A stretch of DNA of 64,000 nucleotides from an uncultured virus (IMG/VR IMGVR_UViG_3300043107_000144) (taxonomy: Duplodnaviria > Heunggongvirae > Uroviricota > Caudoviricetes), in the IMG/VR virus record IMGVR_UViG_3300043107_000144. One strand, written 5' to 3'. Position numbers and translations under genes: made by a program. The notes beneath the pieces were generated by a model that was not told where the DNA came from, searched no databases, and saw nothing but the letters and a program-made list of their open reading frames with translations. The stretch's first letter is position 1; every line of letters starts with the position of its first letter. Shown piece by piece: positions 16,883 to 59,858 of the stretch.

Positions 16883-17368
16883 ATGAAAGAAACAAAGAAC
16901 AACGAGAATGGTTTGAGTATTGATTCGCAGCTACGTCTTGCGAGTATTCTCAACGATACCACCACCAAGGTGCATCTTGGCGGCAGGATATTTGAGATAC
17001 GCGCCCTTCGTGCCGGTACGCAGTACCTTATCGCGGAGGAGGCGGCAAGGATAGCAAAGAGTGGAGAGGACTTTTCGGATATTGTCAAGCGCTTTGCCGA
17101 GGATGTACCGCGGGTTGTCAGGTGTATCACCCTTGCCGTGCTTAACGACAAGGAGAAGATTCAATCCCGTGAGTATCAGGATATGTATGACTTTATCATG
17201 TATGAGACTGACCCGAAGGAGTGGTTGCCGCTGCTTATGCAGGTGCTGCAGATGCTTGATTTGAGCTTTTTTTTTGCGATTTTACCGCAGATAGATTTGT
17301 TCCGTCAGATGACCCTGATGAAAAAGACTCAAATAGAAGCGCAGTCATCCGAGCTACAAGCGAAGTAG
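16883..17368 (+). CDS. Tail assembly chaperone (gpG-like)
   Basis: Between tail tube and tape measure; contains T9 slippery tract at 17267-17275. Confidence 0.7.
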   Translation: MKETKNNENGLSIDSQLRLASILNDTTTKVHLGGRIFEIRALRAGTQYLIAEEAARIAKSGEDFSDIVKRFAEDVPRVVRCITLAVLNDKEKIQSREYQDMYDFIMYETDPKEWLPLLMQVLQMLDLSFFFAILPQIDLFRQMTLMKKTQIEAQSSELQAK

Positions 17369-17629: not shown

Positions 17630-20600
17630 ATGGCTGATAGTGAAGTAGTAGGTATAAAGATAGAAGTCGATGAGGCCAACCTTAACAATGCCGCAAAAGC
17701 TGTTAAGGATGCTGTATCCGGCATACGTACCACCGTAGAGAGCGAGATGAGAGCCGTTAGCGACGCCATCTCCAACATTCCTGCCGCAGGTATAGAAGAG
17801 CTGGCGGGCAAGTTGAACTCACTGAAGGCGGCAATCGGAGATATGAACGTCAGCAAGAACCTGACGGAATCCATGAAGGCTATCAAGAGCCTTGCCGACA
17901 TAAAGGATACAACCGCACTTGAAAAGGTAACAACAATGCTCTCCGAGCTTCAATCAAAAACGGGCGGCAACGGACTGGAGAAGACCTCAAGGGACATAAA
18001 GCAGGTTAAAGAAGAGGCAGACAAGGCTGCTGAATCCATATCCAATATGGCGCAGCAGGTATCTGCCACCGCTGACTCTTCAGGTCTTGGTTTCTTCGGG
18101 AGGTTGAAAGAGAAGATTATAAAGGCGACCGATGAACTCACCTCCGACCCGTATGAAAAAGCAGAGAGTGAGCAGGAGAGAAAGAGCACGGAACGGGCGA
18201 CGGAAGCACTGCGTGAAAAGAACAAGGTGCAGAAGGAGACCAATGAGCTGTACAGAAGCCTCTCAACAACCATACAGCAGTTTACCGGTGCACTCTCACA
18301 GCTTCAGAGTGTACTTGACAAGGTGGCGCAGAAACACAGGACAGCAGGTAAAGCAGCAAAAGAGCAGACGGTAGACATAGAGGAGTTGAAGAACAGAATC
18401 AGTACCGTTGCTTCTGATAAGTCCATCGGCAAGCAGAGCGTAGCTTGGATAACAAACACAATCAACGATATTAATACCGCCATGCGCAGTATTGGTGTAG
18501 ACCGCGAGACCGAGCAGTGGTTTGCCAATATCAAGCAGAGCCTGACGGATATACGTAAGCTGCGTGAATCTGCTACCAGCGTAAAGGAAGCGGGTAAGGA
18601 GAGCAACGCAGAGAAAGAGCTGAACCAGTTATATACAGAGCGGTTAAGACTTCTCGGTCAGCTCAATTCTGCAGGCAGAACAATCGAGGTATCGCTTGCA
18701 AAGAACAATACCTCTACCGTAGAAACAGAGAACTACTTCAGCGCCATCAAGAAACAGATTGATGAACTGGACGCAAAGATAGCCGAGGCAAAAGGAAGGC
18801 TTGGCGACTTAGGTTCAAGCGCCACAAAAGTATTCGACGAGAAGACTATTCTTGCCGAAGCAAAGGCTGCGTCTCAACTTGCCGAAGCGCTCAATAAGGT
18901 AAGCATGGCGAAGCAGAAGCTGGAACAGACAGACCTGTCGAAGGCACAGACAAGTGTCCGCTCCATGTACAATCAGATTCTTCAGCTTGGAAGACTTCAG
19001 GAAAGTCTTTTCTCCACGCAAGGTAAATTTGCTGCCGGTTCAGAGAACTACGACAAGGCAGCAGAAGGTATCAAACGCATAGAGGAAAGAATCACCACCC
19101 TTCGCGAAAGAATCCAAGAGCTAAAATCCAAGTACGGAGAATCAAACTTCACGGATGCCGAGCAGCAGTATGCTATCAAGTCTACCGCGCAGCAGGTAAA
19201 GATAGCAGAGGATGCGGAGAAGGAGAAGACCTCCATTGCAGCACGTGAGGCAGCAGAGAGAAGAGCCAATGAGATACATGAAGCCAAGCTGGCGACGGAA
19301 GAGGCGAAGAGACTTCGCTTAGAGGCGGCAGCAAGCAACTTGGACGCACGCACCATCGCCACGCAAACAAAGACATCGACCTCTCAATCTAAGGAAGAGA
19401 GAGAGATTGAGCTTCAAAGAGAACGCGAGAAAGAGATTGCACGTGTAAGAGAGCAGATTGACGCACTTGACAAGGCAGACAAAGACTACGCAGAGAACCT
19501 TACAAGGCTCAATGCTATCCTTACCAACCTTATCAACAAGAAGTCCGCCAATGCCGCTACGACAAGAACAGCTACCGCAGAGGAAGCAAGAGAAGCTGTT
19601 GCTATTGCCAACAATACAAAATCTCTGAAGGACTATATCAATGCCCGCCAAAAGCTCATCAGTGCAATGAGCGGAATGAACAGCACAAGTGCAGAGTGGC
19701 AGAGACTTAACGCACTCCTTGCTGATACGACCAGAAATATCGACCGTATCAAACAGAAGATGGGCGAACTGAACAGTAAGGCGAAAGAAACCAATACACT
19801 TGCCTCGCAGCTGCGTAATCAGTTTGCCGCGCTATTCTCTATCTCCGCTATCAAGGGATTCATTACGAAGATGGTTGAGGTACGAGCACAGTTTGAGCTT
19901 CAGCGCATTGCATTGGGCGCTATCATTCAGGATGTAGACCGTGCAAACGACGTATTCAAGGAAGTTCAGAACATGGCCCTTGAATCTCCGTTCTCCATCA
20001 TGCAGCTGGAACGTGCCACCAAGCAGATTGCAGCTTTTGGTGTAGAGGCGGATAAACTGAAACCATCTATCAAGATGCTTGCGGATATTTCCGCAGGTTT
20101 GGGTGTTGATATTGACCGACTTATCCTTGTCTACGGACATATCAAGGCAAACAACGCACTCCAGCAGCTTCACGTTCGTCAGTTTACCAATGCAGGATTC
20201 AATATCGCACAGAACCTTGCCGATTACTTTACGGAGATTGAGGGAAAGATGGTGAGCGTTGCCGATGTGACAGATAGAATCCACAAGAAGATGGTTACGT
20301 TTGCCGATGTAGAGGAAGTGCTTAGACGTGTGACAAGCGCCGGCGGTATGTTCTATGATATGCAGAAGAAACAGTCAGATTCTCTTTGGGGACAGATGCA
20401 GCGTATCAAAGACCAGTATGACCTTATGCTTAATGAGATTGGCCAGAGTAGTCAGAACAGTATATCATGGGTTCTTACAACTATCCGTGCTCTTATCAAG
20501 CACTGGAGAGAGTTTTCGAATATAGTAAAAGGCCTTTCATACGTATTCGCAGGATGGGCGGCATACAAAATACTGTTTGGTGTTATCGCTAGCCTAGGAG

Positions 20601-23600
20601 CGAAGGTTGTAACCGTGTTTAAGAATTTGAGAGCGGCCATCATGCTTGTAAACTCAGAAGCCAAAAAAGGAGCTGCAATGGCTACGTTGTTTGGAACTTC
20701 ATGGAAAGCAGCCTTAGTGCAAACAGGTGTAGGTCTAGTGGTTATCGCTATTACATCTTTGATTGCTTTGCTTTTCAAGGCGAATGGAGCAGCTCAGCAG
20801 CTAAATGAAGAGCTCGGTCGCATTGGCGAGTCTCAAGGTCAGCACTTGAAAGAAAGTATCGCAAACTATTTATCTCTTGCGGAGACCGTAAAAAGCTCCA
20901 ATAAGTCATATTCAGAGCAAGAAGAAGCACTCTCTGAATTAAAGCGTATATATAAGGATATTCTTCCGTCGTATATGCTTGAAAGAGAGTATCTTGAAAA
21001 GAATACAGATGCGTACAAGGACGCAACGGATGCTATCAATAAGTATTATATCGCTCAGGAGTACAATAAGAAGTTGACAGCTATCGAACAGTCTGAGTAT
21101 TACACGAAGGCTCTTGAAAAGATGAAGGAAGTCGGAAAGAAATTCATGAAAGAGGGTGTGTTTGATGAGTATGTGACAAAAGATGCCGTAAATAAATGGA
21201 TGGAGGTTATCACAAAGGAGCTTGCTGCCGGTAAACTTGAAAACTCTAAGGCTGCGATAAAAAAGAGAATGGAAGAACTCTTTGAAGGGCACATGGATGT
21301 ATCAAAGATACCTGATACCGATACTGGCATTAAGAAGGTTACAAAGCAGATAGATAAGCTCATTGAAGCCGAAGGTAATCTTACGCTTGCTACTCTCGGT
21401 GGAAAGAATGTGCAGGAAGACTATGCAAAATCTCTTGAATCTGCTCCTCTGGACCAATTAATTGCTAGGTATAAGTCATTGCAGAAAGAGATAGATACGT
21501 ACAAAGAAAATATCAAAAAACTGCAGCAAATTACAAGCTCAACTCAACGCTCGAACATTGATGAAAAAATAAAAGATTACGAACAGAAAATCAGTGATAT
21601 TCAGAGCAGGCTGCTCCCAGAACTGGAAGAAGCGTTGTCGAAACGACTTGTCGATGAAGTTCAGGCCGGATTTGAAGAGTCTTTCAAGAATGTCGAAGAA
21701 ACCATCCGCTTGTACGCAAAGTTAAAGACGGAGAAGGAGGAACTTTCGAAGAAGAAGATTCAGACGGAAGACGATAAGGAGGCACTTAAAAAAGTGAATG
21801 AAGAACTTGTAAAAGCAGGCGCTAGTATTAGACAACTTCTTCCTCACATAGATGAAGCATCGCTTGCTTTTCTTGATAGCGCTGACAATGCCTTTACTCT
21901 TGAAAAAGGAATTAAATCACTTAAAGAGGCATTCTTGGCTAGAGAGTTTACAGCGACAGCACCCAAGTTCTTGTCGGGTATAAACTCGCATATACTTGAC
22001 ACACTTGGCAAGATTGAGTGGCTGAAGAAAGCCATCAACAGTATCTCGCAGACGCTATTCAAGAAGACGGTATTTACAGATGTTGACGAGACAGTTATTA
22101 CCGCGGCTCAGGAGGCGCAGATGAAAGCTTCCGAAGAGGCGGCTGAGGCACTCTCACGCGAAGAGAAGGTTTATCAGGAAGCGGCAAAAAAATACGGTGT
22201 TGACTTAAACAGGCTGACAAAATATAGAAAGAGCGACCAAGAGGCGAACTCTACGTATGCAAAAAGACTGAAAGATACAGCCGAGGAGTACGAAAAAACG
22301 CAGGCACATTTCAGTTCACTTGCAGCAGAGCAAAAAACAGCTTACCTGAAGGAACATTCAACAACTGTTCAGGCTATTGAGGATAATGCACAAATGGCAA
22401 AATCGCTTCGGTATATATCAGAGGTTTACGATGAGACCGGTGCAAACGACGCAAAGAACAAGAAGTCGGGTAAAGACCCCATCCTCGACCTCTGGAAAGA
22501 CCGCGTGAAGTATATCGAGGACTTCTTCAAACGCTATAAGGAATCCTTGAAGAACTTCAGCAAGGAAGCGACCGATGCCAATGTATCAGAATCCTTCAAG
22601 GCGCTCTTTGACGTAAAAGGTGCCGATGGAAATAGCCTTAGCCAGATGAAAGGTCTTAACATAGCAGACCTTATCGCGAACAATGTAGACGACAAGGGAC
22701 TTGTTGAAGCCTTTGAGAAGCTGAAAGCGCTTATCCCCTCAAAGTATAAAGACCTGATTGATGATATACAGAAGAAGATTTCCGATACATCCATGACGGT
22801 AGGAGTGAGTGTTCAGGTAGAAGGACTTAAAAACACGCAGCAGCAGATAGATGAACTCTTCGACAGCTACGAACTCTCAAAGACCATCAAAGACCTTGGT
22901 CTTAATGTTGAGATGGTTGCCATGGTTGGCGGAAAGCCGACATCACTTGAAGACCTCCAAGAAAAGATAGACGGAGTGTACAAGGATATGTTAAAGACGC
23001 AGAAGGTGTACGGTACGGAAGGTGAGAAGAGCTGGGACAAGTACTACGAAAAGGTAAAGAGTATCGAGAACAAGGCTCTTCAGGAAAGAATGAAGGACTA
23101 TGCCAAGTACATGACTACCGCCTACGGAGAGAGAGCAAAGTATCAGATTGATATGTACAATCAGATGACACAGATGCTTGGCGACTTCGACAAGGCTGCA
23201 CTGCAGAATCCGCAGATGGCCGATACGTACAAGCAGATGGCTGCTGATGCCATGCGCAACATGAAGAAGGAGATAGAGACGAAGATGGGAGAGTTTGACT
23301 TCAAGGACTTGATGGAATCAGATATGTTTACCGAGATGTTCCAAGACCTGTCCCGTATCTCCGACAAGGTACTTGACAGTATGCTCTCCAAGATTCGCGA
23401 GATACGTCAGACCTCTGAAAACCTATCCTTCTCGCAGCTTCGTCAGCTGGCGCAGTACGAGGAGAAAATCATGGCGGCTAAGTTTGACAAGGGCGGCATT
23501 ACCGATTACGTCAAGGCCATAAGGGATGCAGCCGCGGCACGCAAGGCATTTGGAAGCCGCGAGGATATTCAGGTGAAGCTCACCACCACGCAGGACCAGA

Positions 23601-25054
23601 TAGATTCACAGCAGAAGTATCTCGACGACCTGAACGTGGCGATGGCTATCGACTCGAAGACCTATGATATAGACGAAAACAAGGCAAACCTTTCGGAGCG
23701 GCAGCTGGAAATCCTGAAGCAGCAGAGAGTATCACTTGCCAACGGTCTTGACTATATCAGAATGCAGAAGGCATCCACGCAGGAGAATATCACCGCCATT
23801 ACCAAGGAGAACAAGAAACTTCAGGAGGCAGATGATAGTCAGAAGTCAGCAGCGCAGGCAGCGCAGCAGATGCAAAACAAGATACAGGCTTGGGGCGAGG
23901 TTGCGCAGCAGGCAGTCGGTATTGCCAGTGATGCCATGACGGTATTTAAGGGTCAGCTCAACGAGGAAGACGAGGCATGGATAGAGTTTGCAAGCAACAT
24001 GGTAAACATGATTGTACAGCTCGGTATCATGTTCGTAGCTCTGGGTGTAACAATCACATCCGCACTTGGAATCATCGGCCTTATTGCCACTGCAATCTCT
24101 ACTATCTTAGGCCTTGTAAAGACACTACTTGCTACGCATGATTCTTCCCTTGAAAAGCAAATCAGCCGGTTAAAAGATAAGATTGAAGACCTTGAAAGAG
24201 CCTACGACAAGCTGTCTGATGCGATGGATGCAGCCTTTGACTATAGCTCATACTCCATGGACTATAGCAAGATGCGGTATAACCTGAACAAGCAGATACA
24301 GTACTATAACGAGATGATTCAGCTCGAAAAGAGCAAGAAAAACTCCGACAGCAGCAAAATCAGGGAATATCAGCAGGCTATCGAGGACTTGCGCGACGAA
24401 CTTGAAGAGCTCAGAGAACAGCGTATCACAGACCTTGGCGGATTCGGTTCATCAAACTATAAGAGCACCGTAGAGGACTTTGTTTCCTCTTGGGTCGACG
24501 CCTTCAAGGAGACGGGCGACGGTCTTGATGCGCTGAAGGATAAGTGGAGCGAGAGTATCGAGAGTATGTTTGTCAAACAGGCAACCATCAACCGTGCCGC
24601 AAAACTCTATTCAAAGGCAATGGAGATTATCGACAATGCCATCGACAGCGGCTCTACAGGTTTCGGTCTTGAAGAGGCTATATCGGCAGCACAGAGAGCG
24701 AGCGACCAAGCAGCAGAGGAGCTGAACGATTACCTGAAAGCACTGGCGAAAGTCTTCGGTATCTCTTCGGAAGGAGAGAATACGTTGTCAGAGCTTCAGC
24801 AGGGTATATCCAACATTACAGAATCTCAGGCGGCAGCGATTGAGGCATACCTGAACTCCATTCGTTTCTATGTAGCCTCGGACAACGAGAAAGTGACGGA
24901 GCTGACAACGCTTATCCGCTCGCAGTATGAGAATGTAATCAATCCTATGCTGACGGTACTGAAGGAGATACGTGATGGTATCAGCTCATTCAGCGATAAG
25001 TTCTCCGCAGCCTTCAAGAACACTGGCGGTAGCTGGAAACTTCAGGTTTGCTAA
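17630..25054 (+). CDS. Tape measure protein
   Basis: 2474 aa, helical, with tape-measure domain (ALESPFSIMQLERATKQIAAFG) and hydrophobic segments. Confidence 0.9.
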   Translation: MADSEVVGIKIEVDEANLNNAAKAVKDAVSGIRTTVESEMRAVSDAISNIPAAGIEELAGKLNSLKAAIGDMNVSKNLTESMKAIKSLADIKDTTALEKVTTMLSELQSKTGGNGLEKTSRDIKQVKEEADKAAESISNMAQQVSATADSSGLGFFGRLKEKIIKATDELTSDPYEKAESEQERKSTERATEALREKNKVQKETNELYRSLSTTIQQFTGALSQLQSVLDKVAQKHRTAGKAAKEQTVDIEELKNRISTVASDKSIGKQSVAWITNTINDINTAMRSIGVDRETEQWFANIKQSLTDIRKLRESATSVKEAGKESNAEKELNQLYTERLRLLGQLNSAGRTIEVSLAKNNTSTVETENYFSAIKKQIDELDAKIAEAKGRLGDLGSSATKVFDEKTILAEAKAASQLAEALNKVSMAKQKLEQTDLSKAQTSVRSMYNQILQLGRLQESLFSTQGKFAAGSENYDKAAEGIKRIEERITTLRERIQELKSKYGESNFTDAEQQYAIKSTAQQVKIAEDAEKEKTSIAAREAAERRANEIHEAKLATEEAKRLRLEAAASNLDARTIATQTKTSTSQSKEEREIELQREREKEIARVREQIDALDKADKDYAENLTRLNAILTNLINKKSANAATTRTATAEEAREAVAIANNTKSLKDYINARQKLISAMSGMNSTSAEWQRLNALLADTTRNIDRIKQKMGELNSKAKETNTLASQLRNQFAALFSISAIKGFITKMVEVRAQFELQRIALGAIIQDVDRANDVFKEVQNMALESPFSIMQLERATKQIAAFGVEADKLKPSIKMLADISAGLGVDIDRLILVYGHIKANNALQQLHVRQFTNAGFNIAQNLADYFTEIEGKMVSVADVTDRIHKKMVTFADVEEVLRRVTSAGGMFYDMQKKQSDSLWGQMQRIKDQYDLMLNEIGQSSQNSISWVLTTIRALIKHWREFSNIVKGLSYVFAGWAAYKILFGVIASLGAKVVTVFKNLRAAIMLVNSEAKKGAAMATLFGTSWKAALVQTGVGLVVIAITSLIALLFKANGAAQQLNEELGRIGESQGQHLKESIANYLSLAETVKSSNKSYSEQEEALSELKRIYKDILPSYMLEREYLEKNTDAYKDATDAINKYYIAQEYNKKLTAIEQSEYYTKALEKMKEVGKKFMKEGVFDEYVTKDAVNKWMEVITKELAAGKLENSKAAIKKRMEELFEGHMDVSKIPDTDTGIKKVTKQIDKLIEAEGNLTLATLGGKNVQEDYAKSLESAPLDQLIARYKSLQKEIDTYKENIKKLQQITSSTQRSNIDEKIKDYEQKISDIQSRLLPELEEALSKRLVDEVQAGFEESFKNVEETIRLYAKLKTEKEELSKKKIQTEDDKEALKKVNEELVKAGASIRQLLPHIDEASLAFLDSADNAFTLEKGIKSLKEAFLAREFTATAPKFLSGINSHILDTLGKIEWLKKAINSISQTLFKKTVFTDVDETVITAAQEAQMKASEEAAEALSREEKVYQEAAKKYGVDLNRLTKYRKSDQEANSTYAKRLKDTAEEYEKTQAHFSSLAAEQKTAYLKEHSTTVQAIEDNAQMAKSLRYISEVYDETGANDAKNKKSGKDPILDLWKDRVKYIEDFFKRYKESLKNFSKEATDANVSESFKALFDVKGADGNSLSQMKGLNIADLIANNVDDKGLVEAFEKLKALIPSKYKDLIDDIQKKISDTSMTVGVSVQVEGLKNTQQQIDELFDSYELSKTIKDLGLNVEMVAMVGGKPTSLEDLQEKIDGVYKDMLKTQKVYGTEGEKSWDKYYEKVKSIENKALQERMKDYAKYMTTAYGERAKYQIDMYNQMTQMLGDFDKAALQNPQMADTYKQMAADAMRNMKKEIETKMGEFDFKDLMESDMFTEMFQDLSRISDKVLDSMLSKIREIRQTSENLSFSQLRQLAQYEEKIMAAKFDKGGITDYVKAIRDAAAARKAFGSREDIQVKLTTTQDQIDSQQKYLDDLNVAMAIDSKTYDIDENKANLSERQLEILKQQRVSLANGLDYIRMQKASTQENITAITKENKKLQEADDSQKSAAQAAQQMQNKIQAWGEVAQQAVGIASDAMTVFKGQLNEEDEAWIEFASNMVNMIVQLGIMFVALGVTITSALGIIGLIATAISTILGLVKTLLATHDSSLEKQISRLKDKIEDLERAYDKLSDAMDAAFDYSSYSMDYSKMRYNLNKQIQYYNEMIQLEKSKKNSDSSKIREYQQAIEDLRDELEELREQRITDLGGFGSSNYKSTVEDFVSSWVDAFKETGDGLDALKDKWSESIESMFVKQATINRAAKLYSKAMEIIDNAIDSGSTGFGLEEAISAAQRASDQAAEELNDYLKALAKVFGISSEGENTLSELQQGISNITESQAAAIEAYLNSIRFYVASDNEKVTELTTLIRSQYENVINPMLTVLKEIRDGISSFSDKFSAAFKNTGGSWKLQVC

Positions 25055-46826: not shown

Positions 46827-47561
46827 ATGAAAAAAGAGGAATTAAAAAGCCGTATTAACGCGCTTGTAAGTGAAAAACAGAGTTTGCATGCAGCATTAAA
46901 AGCGGTACTCGAGGTCAGTGAAAAAGAGTCGATTGACGGTGTTGTGCGTAGTTGGGCGAAAGATTTTTGTAGAAAATTTGGAATTACTGAGACGGCGCTT
47001 AAAAAAGCAAATAGGGCTGCAACTAGAGGTCGCGTAATGCCTTGCATCACAATGATTGACAATGTAGCGTACCAACCTTGTAAAATTGTCAAGGTGTACG
47101 GCACTGAGTTCGGGCGCGTACGTTATATCGCATGGACAACCGCACTCGCTATGATTGATTTGGACGCTACTGAGTGCACTCAGGTTGTTGTCAACACTCA
47201 GTCGCACAATGAGTACTACCACGCTGACGGCACACCGTGTACCGCCGAGGAGGTTGCTGAAGTGGAGGCGGCGCGCAAAATTGCCGAGGCTGAGCGCGCC
47301 TTGGTGGCGCTTAGCAAAGCGCGAGCGCTAGTCAAGGAGGCGGACGCGCGCGAAGCCAAAGCCAAAGCCGAAGCCGAAGCCGCCAAAGCCGCAAAAGCCG
47401 CCAAAGCCGCAAAGGAAGCAAAAGCCGCCAAAGCCGCAAAGGAAGCAAAAGCCGCCAAAGCCGCAAAGGAAGCAAAAGCCGCCAAAGCCGCAAAGGAAGC
47501 AAAAGCCGCCAAAGCCGCAAAAGCCGCAAAGGAAGCCAAAGCCGAAGCCGAAGCCAAATAA
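46827..47561 (+). CDS. Protein with C-terminal Ala/Lys/Glu repeats (histone-H1/TolA-like low complexity)
   Basis: (AKAAKAAKE)n encoded by 27-nt repeats; own promoter and terminator. Confidence 0.75.
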   Translation: MKKEELKSRINALVSEKQSLHAALKAVLEVSEKESIDGVVRSWAKDFCRKFGITETALKKANRAATRGRVMPCITMIDNVAYQPCKIVKVYGTEFGRVRYIAWTTALAMIDLDATECTQVVVNTQSHNEYYHADGTPCTAEEVAEVEAARKIAEAERALVALSKARALVKEADAREAKAKAEAEAAKAAKAAKAAKEAKAAKAAKEAKAAKAAKEAKAAKAAKEAKAAKAAKAAKEAKAEAEAK

Positions 47562-47579: not shown

Positions 47580-47613
47580 AAGGGGGGGACTCAAACGGGT
47601 TCCCCCCTTTTTT
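47580..47613 (+). terminator. Intrinsic terminator
   Basis: AGGGGGGGAC...GTTCCCCCCT followed by T run. Confidence 0.8.
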
Positions 47614-49982: not shown

Positions 49983-50741
49983 ATGAAGACGATAAGAGTA
50001 TTTGAGGCTTTTGCCGGCTATGGAAGTCAGGCGATGGCATTGAAGAGATTGGAGAAGGAGTTTCCCGACAAGGTACATTTTGAGTTTGTGGGTATCTCGG
50101 AGATAGACTCTAATCCGATTAAGGCTTATGCCGCCGTTCATGGAGATACCCCGAATTACGGTGACATCAGCAAGATAGATTGGTCGAATGTGCCTGATTT
50201 TGACCTGTTTACTTACAGTGCGCCCTGTACGGACATTTCAGCCGCCGGCAAGCAAGCAGGGTTTGAAGAGGGCAGCGGTACACGTTCATCCCTCCTTTGG
50301 GAATGTAAGAGAACCATCGAGGCGAAGCACCCGAAATACCTTATCATGGAAAATGTCAAGGCAATCACGCAGAAGAAATTCCTTCCGTTCTTTCGTATGT
50401 GGCAGGAATGGTTGAGCGGTCAGGGCTATGTAAATTTCTATAAGGTACTTAATGCCAAAGATTACGGGGTACCTCAAAACAGAGAACGTTGCTTCATGGT
50501 AAGCATACTGGACGAGAACGCCACCTTTGAGTTCCCGAAACCTTTTGAGCTTGAAAGGCGATTGAAGGATGTATTGGAGGATAATGTGGATGAGGGTTAT
50601 TATTTAAGTCCGCAGCAGGTGGAAAGAATCGTAGCCCATTGCGACAGAAAGGTGGCTGAAGGCTGCGGCTTCAAGACTAATTTTACCCCCCCAAGGAATC
50701 AGCGGGGCAATCAAGACAAGAGAAGGACAAAGAGAGTATGA
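49983..50741 (+). CDS. C5-cytosine DNA methyltransferase, catalytic N-terminal part ending just after a C7 tract
   Basis: FEAFAGYG (motif I), SAPCTDIS (IV), MENV (VI), PQNRERCF (VIII). Confidence 0.9.
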   Translation: MKTIRVFEAFAGYGSQAMALKRLEKEFPDKVHFEFVGISEIDSNPIKAYAAVHGDTPNYGDISKIDWSNVPDFDLFTYSAPCTDISAAGKQAGFEEGSGTRSSLLWECKRTIEAKHPKYLIMENVKAITQKKFLPFFRMWQEWLSGQGYVNFYKVLNAKDYGVPQNRERCFMVSILDENATFEFPKPFELERRLKDVLEDNVDEGYYLSPQQVERIVAHCDRKVAEGCGFKTNFTPPRNQRGNQDKRRTKRV

Positions 50742-50914
50742 CACCTACCTTAAAGAACCGTGTGGAGGTAGTAGGGAAGATAAGCAGCTCACAGGACGGA
50801 GTGGTGATAAGTCCGCAGGGGATAGCACCGACGCATACGAGCGGACACGGCAACTGCCCGAAGGTAATGTTAAGAGATTATGAAAGTTCAAGAAGCGATA
50901 AACGTAGACAATGA
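50692..50914 (+). other. Out-of-frame methyltransferase variable-region modules
   Basis: +1 frame QGISGAIKTREGQREYDTYLKEP (open to 50883); +2 frame VEVVGKISSSQDGVVISPQGIAPTHTSGHGNCPKV (open to 50914). Confidence 0.7.
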
Positions 50915-51428
50915 GGGCTGTGCATATACTGTTACCGGAAGGTACTCAGCCATGTGCGCCACGAACGTCATGGGAGGAGGCCATTACCCAATGACCGCTG
51001 TATGCGTAAGGGATGAAGGAATACCACCCCTACCAAAAAAATTAGACATTAAAAGAGAAAAGAAGAATGCCATGAAAGAAGACAAAGAACCCATTACGTG
51101 CGCTCCAAGAAAGAGAGGCGAAGAGCACAAACTGGAAACAGGCGGGAATATAGCCGGTTCCATTACCACTATCGCTACTGACAGTATGGTGACAGAGCCT
51201 AGCGAGCCTGAATACCGAATAAGAAAGCTCACGCCTCGCGAGTGCTTCCGCCTGATGGACGTATCGGACGAGGATATTGACAAGATACAGGCAGCTGGGA
51301 TAAGCAAGAGCCAACAGTATAAATTGGCCGGCAATTCAATCGTTTGCTCAGTTTTGTATCATATCTTCAAGGCGATGTTTATCGAGCAGGTACAGCCGAC
51401 AGAGCCAAGACAATTAGAACTATTTTAA
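50880..51428 (+). CDS. C5 methyltransferase C-terminal part (two variable modules plus motifs IX-X)
   Basis: RIRKLTPRECFRLM (IX), QYKLAGNSIV (X). Confidence 0.88.
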   Translation: MKVQEAINVDNEGCAYTVTGRYSAMCATNVMGGGHYPMTAVCVRDEGIPPLPKKLDIKREKKNAMKEDKEPITCAPRKRGEEHKLETGGNIAGSITTIATDSMVTEPSEPEYRIRKLTPRECFRLMDVSDEDIDKIQAAGISKSQQYKLAGNSIVCSVLYHIFKAMFIEQVQPTEPRQLELF

Positions 51429-51439
51429 AAAAATATATC

Positions 51440-52325
51440 ATGGAAACATTTGGAAAGATAAACCTGATTCACGGAGACTGCATGGATTACCTTCGCTCTC
51501 TTCCAGACAACGCATTTTCGTTAACGTGCGTAGACCCGCCATACTCTGATGGTAAACTGCATGATAATCAGCAGGTTATTGAAGAAATAGGGGGGGTACG
51601 CAGGAGTGGCGGAAGCTGGTTCACGAAGTATCAGCGAAAGATACAACCGCTTCGGCAGCAAGGACAGCCGATTCGAGCGGTACAAGCGGAGTTTGCCGCA
51701 GCCTTACGGGCAGGTTCGGAAGGTACAGGAGGAATTTACCCCCCCCCAACAGTCTATGGAAGAATCTGAAAATGAAGAATATACAGAAATAAGAAACTGC
51801 CGCGGAAGGTTCAAGAAATATGAGCCTGATAGCGACAAAGAAAAGTCAACGACCGGTATCTGGTGGGACGTTGCACCGTCACCTGAATACTTCAAAGAAC
51901 TTTTTCGCGTATCAAAGAATCAGATAATATGGGGAGCCAACTACTTTCCTAATATGCCGCCCACACGGTGCTTCCTTGTATGGAGAAAGCTCACCATATC
52001 AGAGAAGTTCTCGATGGCGATGGCCGAGTACGCATGGACGAGCTTCGACAGGAATGCCAAGGTCTTTGAGTGCGCCCCGCAGGGGAAGAAGAATGACCCG
52101 CGTTTTCATCCAACGGCAAAACCTATCGAGCTATATGCGTGGATATTCAACAACTTCTGCAAGGAAGGAGATACGATACTTGATACCCACTTGGGTAGTG
52201 GTTCATCAGCCATTGCCGCCCATGAGCTTGGGTACGATTTTACCGGTATCGAGATAGACGATGAGTATTATCAGAAGGCAAAGGAGCGGCTTATCAGGTA
52301 TCAGAGCCAGTTATCTCTCTTCTAA
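51440..52325 (+). CDS. N6/N4 (beta-class) DNA methyltransferase, split across frames by G7 and C9 tracts
   Basis: GDCMD...DPPY in the 51440 frame; WDVAP, HPTAKP and ILDTHLGSGS in the 51606 frame. Confidence 0.88.
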
Positions 52326-58966: not shown

Positions 58967-59160
58967 AAAGACAGAAATACAGAATCGGTGATACGGTGAG
59001 CGTGGATAACCGAATAAATAAGATTGATGGGGTTATTAGAAGCGTATATCACTACGTAGGTCATTACGTCTACGGTGTATCGGCAAGCGAGGATGATTAT
59101 CCGCTGTTTATTGGCGAGGAAGAAATAAAGTTAGTGAAGGAGGTGAAATATGAAGAGTGA
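58963..59160 (+). CDS. Small SH3/KOW-like hypothetical
   Basis: KYRIGDTVSV. Confidence 0.5.
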   Translation: MKRQKYRIGDTVSVDNRINKIDGVIRSVYHYVGHYVYGVSASEDDYPLFIGEEEIKLVKEVKYEE

Positions 59161-59858
59161 GTTGATGGAAAGATTTGGCGACATAACAATCTATCATGGT
59201 GACTGCTTGGATATTCTTCCAACGCTTCCAGAGAAGAGCGTTGATGTTATCCTCTGCGACCCTCCATACGGAATAGATTATCAATCCGCCTGGCGGATTG
59301 ATAAGTCTTCACGTAAACCAAAGATTGCCAACGACAAGAAGCCATTTACGAAGCCTATCGCAATGCTATCGAGACTACTGAAGGACACGGGGTGCTGTTA
59401 CATCTTCACCCGATGGGATGTACAGCAGGTCTTCATCGACGAGATGAATGCTCACAACCTTCCAGTAAGGAGCGTTATTGTATGGGATAAGGGCTGTCAT
59501 TCGATGGGCGACCTTTACAAGTCCTACGGTTCGCAGTATGAGAGCATTATCTTCTCTTCAAAGGAGAACTTCAGATTTCCGAGCGGGCGACCAGTTGACA
59601 TCATAAAGGCAGCACGGGTGCCTGCCGAGCAGTTATGCCATCCGAATGAGAAGCCATCGCTATTACTGCAAAAAATTATAATTCAATCAGTTAAGAGAGG
59701 GGGGGGTAATTTTAGACTTCTGTATGGGCAGTGGCAGCACGATGTTGGCGGCATACGACTGCGGATGCGGTGGGATAGGCATAGAGATAGACGATGCCTA
59801 CTACGACCTTGTTAAAAAGAGGTTGAAGATTCATCAAGCGCAACTAAGAATTTTTTAA
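59150..59858 (+). CDS. N6/N4 (beta-class) DNA methyltransferase frameshifted at a G8 tract
   Basis: DPPY and HPNEKP in the annotated frame; SAM-binding VILDFCMGSGST...GIEIDD in the +1 frame after G8 59699-59706; stop 59856-59858. Confidence 0.88.

Follow-up and report, generated by a model that had tools for sequence, protein, structure and literature searches.

The window, that is, the whole 64,000-nucleotide (nt) stretch of DNA analysed here, comes from an uncultured virus (IMG/VR record IMGVR_UViG_3300043107_000144) and has the content of a tailed phage, with a 2,474-amino acid (aa) tape-measure-like open reading frame (ORF), a dUTPase, an SbcC-like nuclease and a KilA-N/ANT protein. At positions 49983-51428 it carries a C5 DNA methyltransferase gene, which probably encodes a two-chain, multi-module enzyme controlled by a switch that works by replication slippage and has three states, two of them productive and one truncated. 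In the proposed mechanism, the first chain, starting at 49983, would be the catalytic core with motifs I-VIII, and the second chain (50880-51428) would supply two recognition-type modules and motifs IX-X, starting at a separate ATG that is overlapped by the end of the upstream reading. A run of seven C residues (C7) would serve as a slippage-prone simple repeat, i.e., a contingency locus, whose length modulo 3 would decide what joins the core. With C6 or C9, the core would be extended by the conserved module 1 and end in an ATGA at the start of chain 2; with C8, it would be followed by a linker and module 2; with C7, the sequenced state, only the bare truncated core would be made. The phage population would then be a mixture of methylase forms with different self-methylation patterns, which could hedge between classical restriction, blocked by methylation, and methyl-dependent restriction, provoked by it. 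We infer that slippage occurs in the window phage itself, that the two chains assemble and that activity or specificity varies with the state of the run.

A profile search divides the family PF00145 between two ORFs: the upstream ORF (hereafter the N-part) covers profile positions 2-227 (E 4.3e-49), and the downstream ORF (the C-part) covers positions 239-322 (E 1.2e-8). The motifs FAGYGS, SAPCTDIS, MENVKA and PQNRERCF are readable in the N-part, and RKLTPRECFRLM and GNSIV (motifs IX-X) are invariant in the C-part alignment, so the description of a C5 methyltransferase with separately encoded motifs IX-X, given in a first-pass annotation made from the letters of this DNA, holds. Since the N-part ends with a stop at 50741, the C-part begins only at 50880 and no run length unites both in one frame, the gene does not encode a single-polypeptide C5 enzyme. 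Reassignment of a stop codon was considered and ruled out, because frame 0 past 50741 contains TAA, TAG and TGA stops inside 130 nt. The coordinates of the region are collected in Table 1.

Table 1. Features of the methyltransferase region and the other G/C runs of at least seven bases, in window positions
Feature	Position	Strand	Support or remark
N-part ORF of the C5 methyltransferase in the sequenced state: 252 aa, with motifs I-VIII and, past the run, a 15-aa off-frame tail	49983..50741	+	PF00145
C7 homopolymer, core/variable-region junction, proposed slippage switch	50686..50692	+	relatives: C7-C10 or G5-G11 at the same site
Module 1, QGISGAIKTREGQREYDTYLKEP, in frame 1, which matches that of the core when the run is C6 or C9	50692..50760	+	
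Frame-2 ORF, 58 aa, containing module 2 VEVVGKISSSQDGVVISPQGIAPTHTSGHGNCPKV (~50762-50863)	50738..50914	+	
C-part ORF, 182 aa, modules 3 and 4 and motifs IX-X	50880..51428	+	PF00145; tblastn
Module 3; module 4 (within the C-part ORF)	~50892-51008; ~51099-51200	+	
Motif IX RIRKLTPRECFRLM; motif X GNSIV (C-part)	~51216-51257; ~51330-51344		
Interrupted C-run CCACCCC (51024-51030) followed by A7 (51035-51041), gap between modules 3 and 4	51024..51041	+	
Internal in-frame ATG, Met65 of the C-part	51072..51074	+	matches starts of separately called relatives
G7 and C9 in the next gene, N6_N4 methylase (51440-52325)	51590-51596; 51739-51747		PF01555
G8 in a third DNA methylase (59150-59858), just ahead of motif I	59699-59706		phrog_67; DPPY...HPNEKP
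G7 and C6 forming a hairpin stem, terminator-like, with a T run after it	47582-47607		directly past the ORF ending at 47561; sole non-methylase run of at least seven bases

The C7 run begins 13 nt past the GF codon that closes the conserved core, and it is a coding homopolymer that sets the frame (50686-50692) with three outcomes, as in a contingency locus. In frame 0 (C7), the N-part ends in ...FKTNFTPPRNQRGNQDKRRTKRV, where the 15 residues after the run are junk, with the stop at 50739-50741. In frame 1 (C6 or C9), QGISGAIKTREGQREYDTYLKEP is followed by 41 more residues ending in NVKRL, and the stop, TGA (50881-50883), shares bases with the ATG of the C-part at 50880. In frame 2 (C8), a linker leads to VEVVGKISSSQDGVVISPQGIAPTHTSGHGNCPKV, and the reading is open to 50914, fusing to the core the region of a 58-aa ORF (MTPTLKNRVEVVGKISSSQDG...PKVMLRDYESSRSDKRRQ, to 50914) whose own ATG at 50738 overlaps the N-part stop (ATGA). 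The three outcomes had been described in the first-pass annotation, and its coordinates, the three frame outcomes, both ATGA overlaps, the A7 tract and the internal ATG are present as described. The ATGA couplings had there been used as an argument against decay, but overlaps and open frames are weak evidence by themselves; it is the comparison with relatives that takes the case beyond chance.

Codon changes in modules 1 and 2 were compared between loci. Between the window and the related locus L046, in both of which module 1 is out of frame, module 1 shows 9 base differences, which in its own frame amount to 6 synonymous codon changes and 1 non-synonymous one. Between L039 and L042, again both out of frame, the synonymous to non-synonymous ratio of module 1 is 10:0 in its own frame and 0:10 in the +1 frame. 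For module 2, the corresponding ratio is 15:1 between L039 and L042 and 17:2 between L039 and L101; between the window and L039 it is 17:8 in its own frame, as against 1-2:22-24 in the other frames. These ratios indicate that purifying selection acts on module 1 and on module 2, each in its own frame, and that it does so also where the run puts the module out of frame.

In addition, no start codon of module 2 is conserved. The ATG at 50738, which the first-pass annotation took as a possible start for the frame-2 ORF, occurs in the relatives P0002 and P0004 and is absent from L046, L049 and the lineage with G runs at the junction; in all of these, module 2 is accessible only via the run, and the proposed start is not supported. 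The offset of the two modules (module 2 in the frame of module 1 plus one) is common to the window lineage and the G-run lineage, the cores of which are only ~58% identical, with L074 as the exception. Selection on the modules, access only through the run and the shared offset together argue against a decaying pseudogene; the first-pass annotation had likewise rejected a pseudogene, and purifying selection on two downstream modules in different frames now gives that view its grounds.

A run is found at the same junction in many related genes. The comparison covered 22 distinct loci, the window included, in which the run at the junction has at least 5 bases; it is C7 in the window, L073 and L112; C8 in L004, L046, L084 and L121; C9 in L049 and L074; C10 in L087; G5 in L042 and L044; G7 in L038, L076, L079 and L101; G8 in L002, L039, L075, L077 and L108; and G11 in L098. 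Module 1 is in frame with the core in 6 of these loci and the module 2 path in 5, and neither is in the other 11. The residues encoded at the site are Pro-Pro in the poly-C lineages, Gly-Gly in the poly-G lineages and neither in the fused relatives (QSPDD, QTGEG), so the run is kept at the DNA level and not for the residues it encodes. In relatives with no run at this site (L006-L013 and others), the reading passes from the core into module 1, then into further modules and motifs IX-X without interruption.

The same outcomes are seen among predicted proteins. The 120 best protein relatives were classed by anchor-motif pattern together with reading by eye, 33 of them being left unclassed because no anchor matched. 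Among these 120, about 44 continue into module 1, about 33 have an off-frame tail straight after the run (FTPPR or FTPPPIKYAER followed by a stop, or FQDEGGGMRNNNNHV... to a stop), and 2 follow the module 2 path; the tail FTPPR with its stop is found on 23 contigs. The module 2 path was read in P0002, P0004 and L046. The relatives of the N-part come from IMG/VR phage contigs and from assemblies of Muribaculaceae, Prevotella and other Bacteroidales.

Length change at the runs can be followed in near-identical relatives. Four loci (L038, L039, L098 and L076) differ by 26-63 substitutions over ~4,490 aligned nt, that is, they are ~99% identical, and if the ends of the alignment and a one-base indel of L076 are set aside, all indels among them fall at three runs: one in the core (G7-G12), the one at the junction (G7/G8/G11) and one after module 2 (C6/C8/C11). 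Likewise, L010 and L012 each show one indel against L007, located ahead of the last module (G8 to G6 and G8 to G7, respectively). The junction run is thus a hot spot of length change in the relatives, which agrees with the first-pass view of C7 as a frame-selecting tract. For the window phage, the exact N-part protein (P0001) occurs on 6 contigs, the longest of 101,671 base pairs (bp). Near-identical DNA was not found: megablast against phage records gave nothing, the nearest record (G001) does not cover the region, and single-protein scans of viral and metagenome contigs gave relatives at 53-59% identity only.

The runs are also strongly concentrated in these genes. For 118 distinct related loci, both ends of the gene could be located. 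Their gene spans (197,959 bp together) contain 144 G/C runs of at least seven bases and their flanks (627,297 bp) contain 29, i.e., 0.73 versus 0.046 per kilobase, a 16-fold difference (Poisson P ~6e-116). Such a run lies at -10 to +40 nt of the core/variable-region junction in 21 of the 118 loci; at least one run is present in 53 loci and at least three in 18, the maximum being 13. Run-bearing genes are far more often not a single ORF (47 of 53) than run-free ones (17 of 65; Fisher p 4e-12). The maximum of 13 runs belongs to L075, in which 15 runs of at least six bases occur in one gene, each of these 15 G runs opening a short recognition-type module. It is tentatively suggested, as a possibility short of an even chance, that in phages of the gut and rumen the G/C runs before the modules of multi-module C5 methyltransferases act together as a combinatorial switch of specificity, in which slippage at each run would decide if the next module is translated, is skipped or terminates the chain.

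As for the second chain, 5,021 stand-alone proteins of 100-319 aa match the C-part. Many relatives end in ..TDTYLKVNETDNPD (TDTYLK(V/L)NETDNPD and a stop), overlapping the start MKQxIPINA of a C-part in the next frame. The start of the C-part in the window, MKVQEAINVDNEG..., corresponds to MRKIQEPLNTDAQG... in L046 and to these MKQxIPINA starts, and a start of the form M-K-x-Q-E is common to the window C-part, L046 and the C-part starts of L004-type relatives. Among the 120 listed relatives, the fused ones reach at most 69% identity, and the closest (70-88%) are short N-parts or run variants. The split had been regarded in the first-pass annotation as deliberate and not as the mark of a pseudogene, and this distribution is in line with it: the comparison marks the two-chain layout as the conserved state of the window's clade, and the two chains presumably assemble.

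Four modules with a G-I-x-P-T-L-T-like core can be distinguished. Module 2 has the canonical form of a recognition module, SQDG...GIAPTxT...PKV, and in one fused relative the final module, immediately ahead of motif IX, is aligned to the loop GIGPTLTASG in M.MpeI (4dkj). The modules behave as cassettes gained and lost among close relatives: in P0122, motifs IX-X are identical to those of the window behind another module, and in the fused relative P0257 (...DTYIVEPIGADPEGCAYALTT...) module 1 is followed directly by the module 3 of the window. An AlphaFold model of the C-part alone, built on a 22-sequence alignment, has a mean predicted local distance difference test score (pLDDT) of 51.6, with residues 17-112 below 50, which is too poor for judging folds.

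Between modules 3 and 4, the A7 tract was considered as a conserved switch. This candidate was rejected, since A7 is absent in L046 and L005 and is therefore not conserved. It adjoins the CCACCCC site, whose homologue in these two loci is an uninterrupted C8 (TACCCCCCCCTAC), which splits the ORF in L046. As read from these homologues, the CCACCCC site is a former run position now fixed in frame. After its C8, L046 continues with ..NIMNDKTRTC.., the counterpart of the internal ATG at 51072, and the same ATG matches the starts of relatives, namely that of P0122 (MEKEPKIL...) and, a few residues upstream, that of P0124.

Some observations weigh against a choice between two modules at the junction. 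Module 1 is the first element in every fused relative inspected, so the C6/C9 state may be a mere "on" state and not one of two specificities, and module 1 is better explained as a constant piece of the variable region than as one of several alternative recognition domains. Neither the 41 aa that follow module 1 in frame 1 nor the linker in frame 2 shows conservation at the protein level, L074 carries module 2 at another offset, and L004, L084 and L121 have one productive frame only, i.e., a plain on/off arrangement. If the window gene were of this kind as well, only the frame of module 1 (C6/C9) would be functional, the C8 product would be a by-product, and module 2 would be conserved through other arrangements, e.g., recombination or an in-frame position behind module 1, as is the case in L094; G-runs that turn phage methylase genes on and off have been described before (PMC4791379). 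This explanation is nevertheless unlikely, since purifying selection on module 2 is seen in L039, L042, L077, L101 and the window, lineages in which it lacks a start codon of its own and is reachable only via the run; the short G5 run of L042 and L044 fixes the module 2 path, and in L107 and L110 the core is joined straight to a module-2-type domain. With respect to the frame-selected alternative recognition modules proposed at first, the conservation of both modules in different frames stands, but the constant first place of module 1 in fused relatives speaks against calling both of them alternatives, and the interpretation as a whole is partly supported.

C7 is the only state seen for the window phage (the exact protein on 6 contigs, with no near-identical DNA found), and this also counts against a switch working through changes in the DNA. 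It would suit recoding, in which ribosomes or RNA polymerase slip on a fixed C7 and all three forms of the N-part arise from one DNA state. The C7 site is, as we take it, a formal slippery heptamer (C CCC CCA for -1; CCC-C for +1), and a T9 tract (17267-17275) in the same window lies at a classical tail-chaperone -1 frameshift site. Recoding is held to be rather improbable, because the runs of relatives show heritable length differences of up to 4-5 bases at the DNA level, and C and G runs of many lengths at one site fit DNA slippage better than a tuned recoding signal. Less probable still is a broken gene or an assembly error, that is, a decaying methylase or run lengths produced by homopolymer miscalls. 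Three frame changes are needed for reading the gene through, the source is an assembly of an uncultured phage for which no sequencing run was found, and each of the three methylase genes of the window is off-frame by one extra base, which a systematic over-call of G/C runs in the assembly would equally produce. Against this, each module is under purifying selection in its own frame, the module offset is the same in the window lineage and the G-run lineage despite cores ~58% identical, and the exact protein recurs on 6 contigs. Moreover, long A/T runs in the window leave ORFs unbroken, including one inside the 2,494-aa ORF, and miscalls are usually smaller than the 3-5 bases by which run lengths differ among relatives. 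A DNA-level slippage switch in a two-chain enzyme remains, for these reasons, the preferred explanation.

Several known systems resemble parts of this arrangement. In tblastn searches, the C-part matches the methyltransferase genes of phi3T, SPR and SPbeta at 36-44% identity over 60-75% of the query (E down to 6e-16), by which the likeness to multispecific phage C5 methyltransferases, pointed to in the first-pass annotation, is borne out. Like M.SPRI, M.Phi3TI and SPbeta MtbP of Bacillus phages, the window gene is phage-borne, has motifs I-X and carries putative recognition modules in tandem in the variable region; unlike these enzymes, which are single polypeptides read in one frame, it is split, with modules in different frames and a slippery run that would choose between them. 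M.AquI and M.EcoHK31I offer a parallel in chain layout, with motifs I-VIII and IX-X on separate chains and the split in the variable region, and the separate ORFs of the window gene are likewise divided in the variable region. For M.EcoHK31I, a different reading frame of one stretch of DNA encodes the small chain. To our knowledge, no slippery run occurs at the junctions of M.AquI and M.EcoHK31I, and these are single-specificity restriction-modification enzymes, unlike the multi-module phage gene of the window.

On the side of repeat-driven switching, a poly-G run in the hsdS of NgoAV reportedly alters specificity through truncation. More generally, the window gene is like the bacterial phasevarions (Type III mod, Type I hsdS), in which simple-repeat slippage alters methylase expression, as set out in PMC12707154, a source that reviews both these slippage-driven phasevarions and the tandem recognition domains of the Bacillus phage enzymes. 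The difference is that bacterial phasevarions are cellular N6-adenine systems regulating host genes, whereas the window encodes a phage C5 enzyme with the run between the core and a stack of modules. Among phages, the agt gene of T2 has been shown to be a contingency locus, in which a homopolymer undergoes reversible frameshifts as a hedge between two restriction systems (bioRxiv 10.1101/2025.10.21.683753), and the methylase ORF of the Bordetella phage BPP-1 contains a variable G-stretch proposed as a control point of expression (PMC4791379). In both, as in the window, the homopolymer lies inside a phage DNA-modification gene. Unlike these on/off cases, two of the three frames in the window lead to different conserved modules, and its relatives carry up to 13 runs of at least seven bases per gene, each at the start of a module.

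A literature search, supplements not covered, found no paper on slippery runs choosing between recognition modules of C5 methyltransferases. On/off runs in phage methylase and modification genes are known already. Phage methylases are a main means of escape from restriction, and methylation also exposes the DNA to methyl-dependent nucleases. A switch of modules on the core, going beyond on/off, would give the phage population a standing mixture of protection patterns. If the combinatorial form of the switch is real, one genome could yield many self-methylation patterns, a viral frameshift counterpart of the recombinational hsdS shufflons. Slippage switching would also explain the "broken" look of many metagenomic phage C5 methylase genes, to which the 47 of 53 run-bearing genes that are not single ORFs correspond. 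For annotation, run-bearing C5 methylase genes should not be labelled pseudogenes; for enzymology, the family offers places where C5 methyltransferases are split by nature and recognition cassettes that can be exchanged.

Across the window, five G/C runs of at least seven bases were counted, and the four coding ones all lie within its three methylase genes, all with frame breaks (Table 1). The gene next to the C5 methyltransferase, the N6_N4 methylase, consists of an N-terminal part in frame 2 with the DPPY motif and a C-terminal part in frame 0, the two overlapping between G7 and C9; one base fewer in either run would join both parts. The third methylase is knocked out of frame by G8, and its motif I, VILDFCMGSGST, goes on in frame 0 to 59858. 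The relatives found for this gene are just two loci at 39% identity, neither with a run at the site; one relative, L143, is intact and run-free there.

Some further features were noted in related C5 methylase genes. In L049 (2166-4193), the closest DNA relative, the N-part contains an intein-like insert after the catalytic Pro-Cys of motif IV (FPC, then FVAGT...VHN, then CQSISSAGKQ), and the precomputed Pfam families of P0242 are Hint_2, Intein_splicing and LAGLIDADG_3. In L006, a C12 run (4540) lies within motif IX (IRKLAPPPR.../...PPPPECFRLMDV), leaving motifs IX-X off-frame in an otherwise fused gene. In L145, from the Streptococcus phage Javan129 (MK448675.1, 13752-14982), a related prophage C5 methylase is annotated as two genes, and the frame switch between its pieces lies close to two runs of A7, at positions 957 and 1006 of the locus; in AT-rich phages, A-runs may thus fill the same role as G/C runs.

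The T9 tract of the window lies 90 nt before the end of the ORF at 16883-17368, upstream of the tape-measure ORF (17630-25054). From T9, the -1 frame is open for ~110 codons to the tape-measure start, which is the classical -1 frameshift layout of tail-assembly chaperones.

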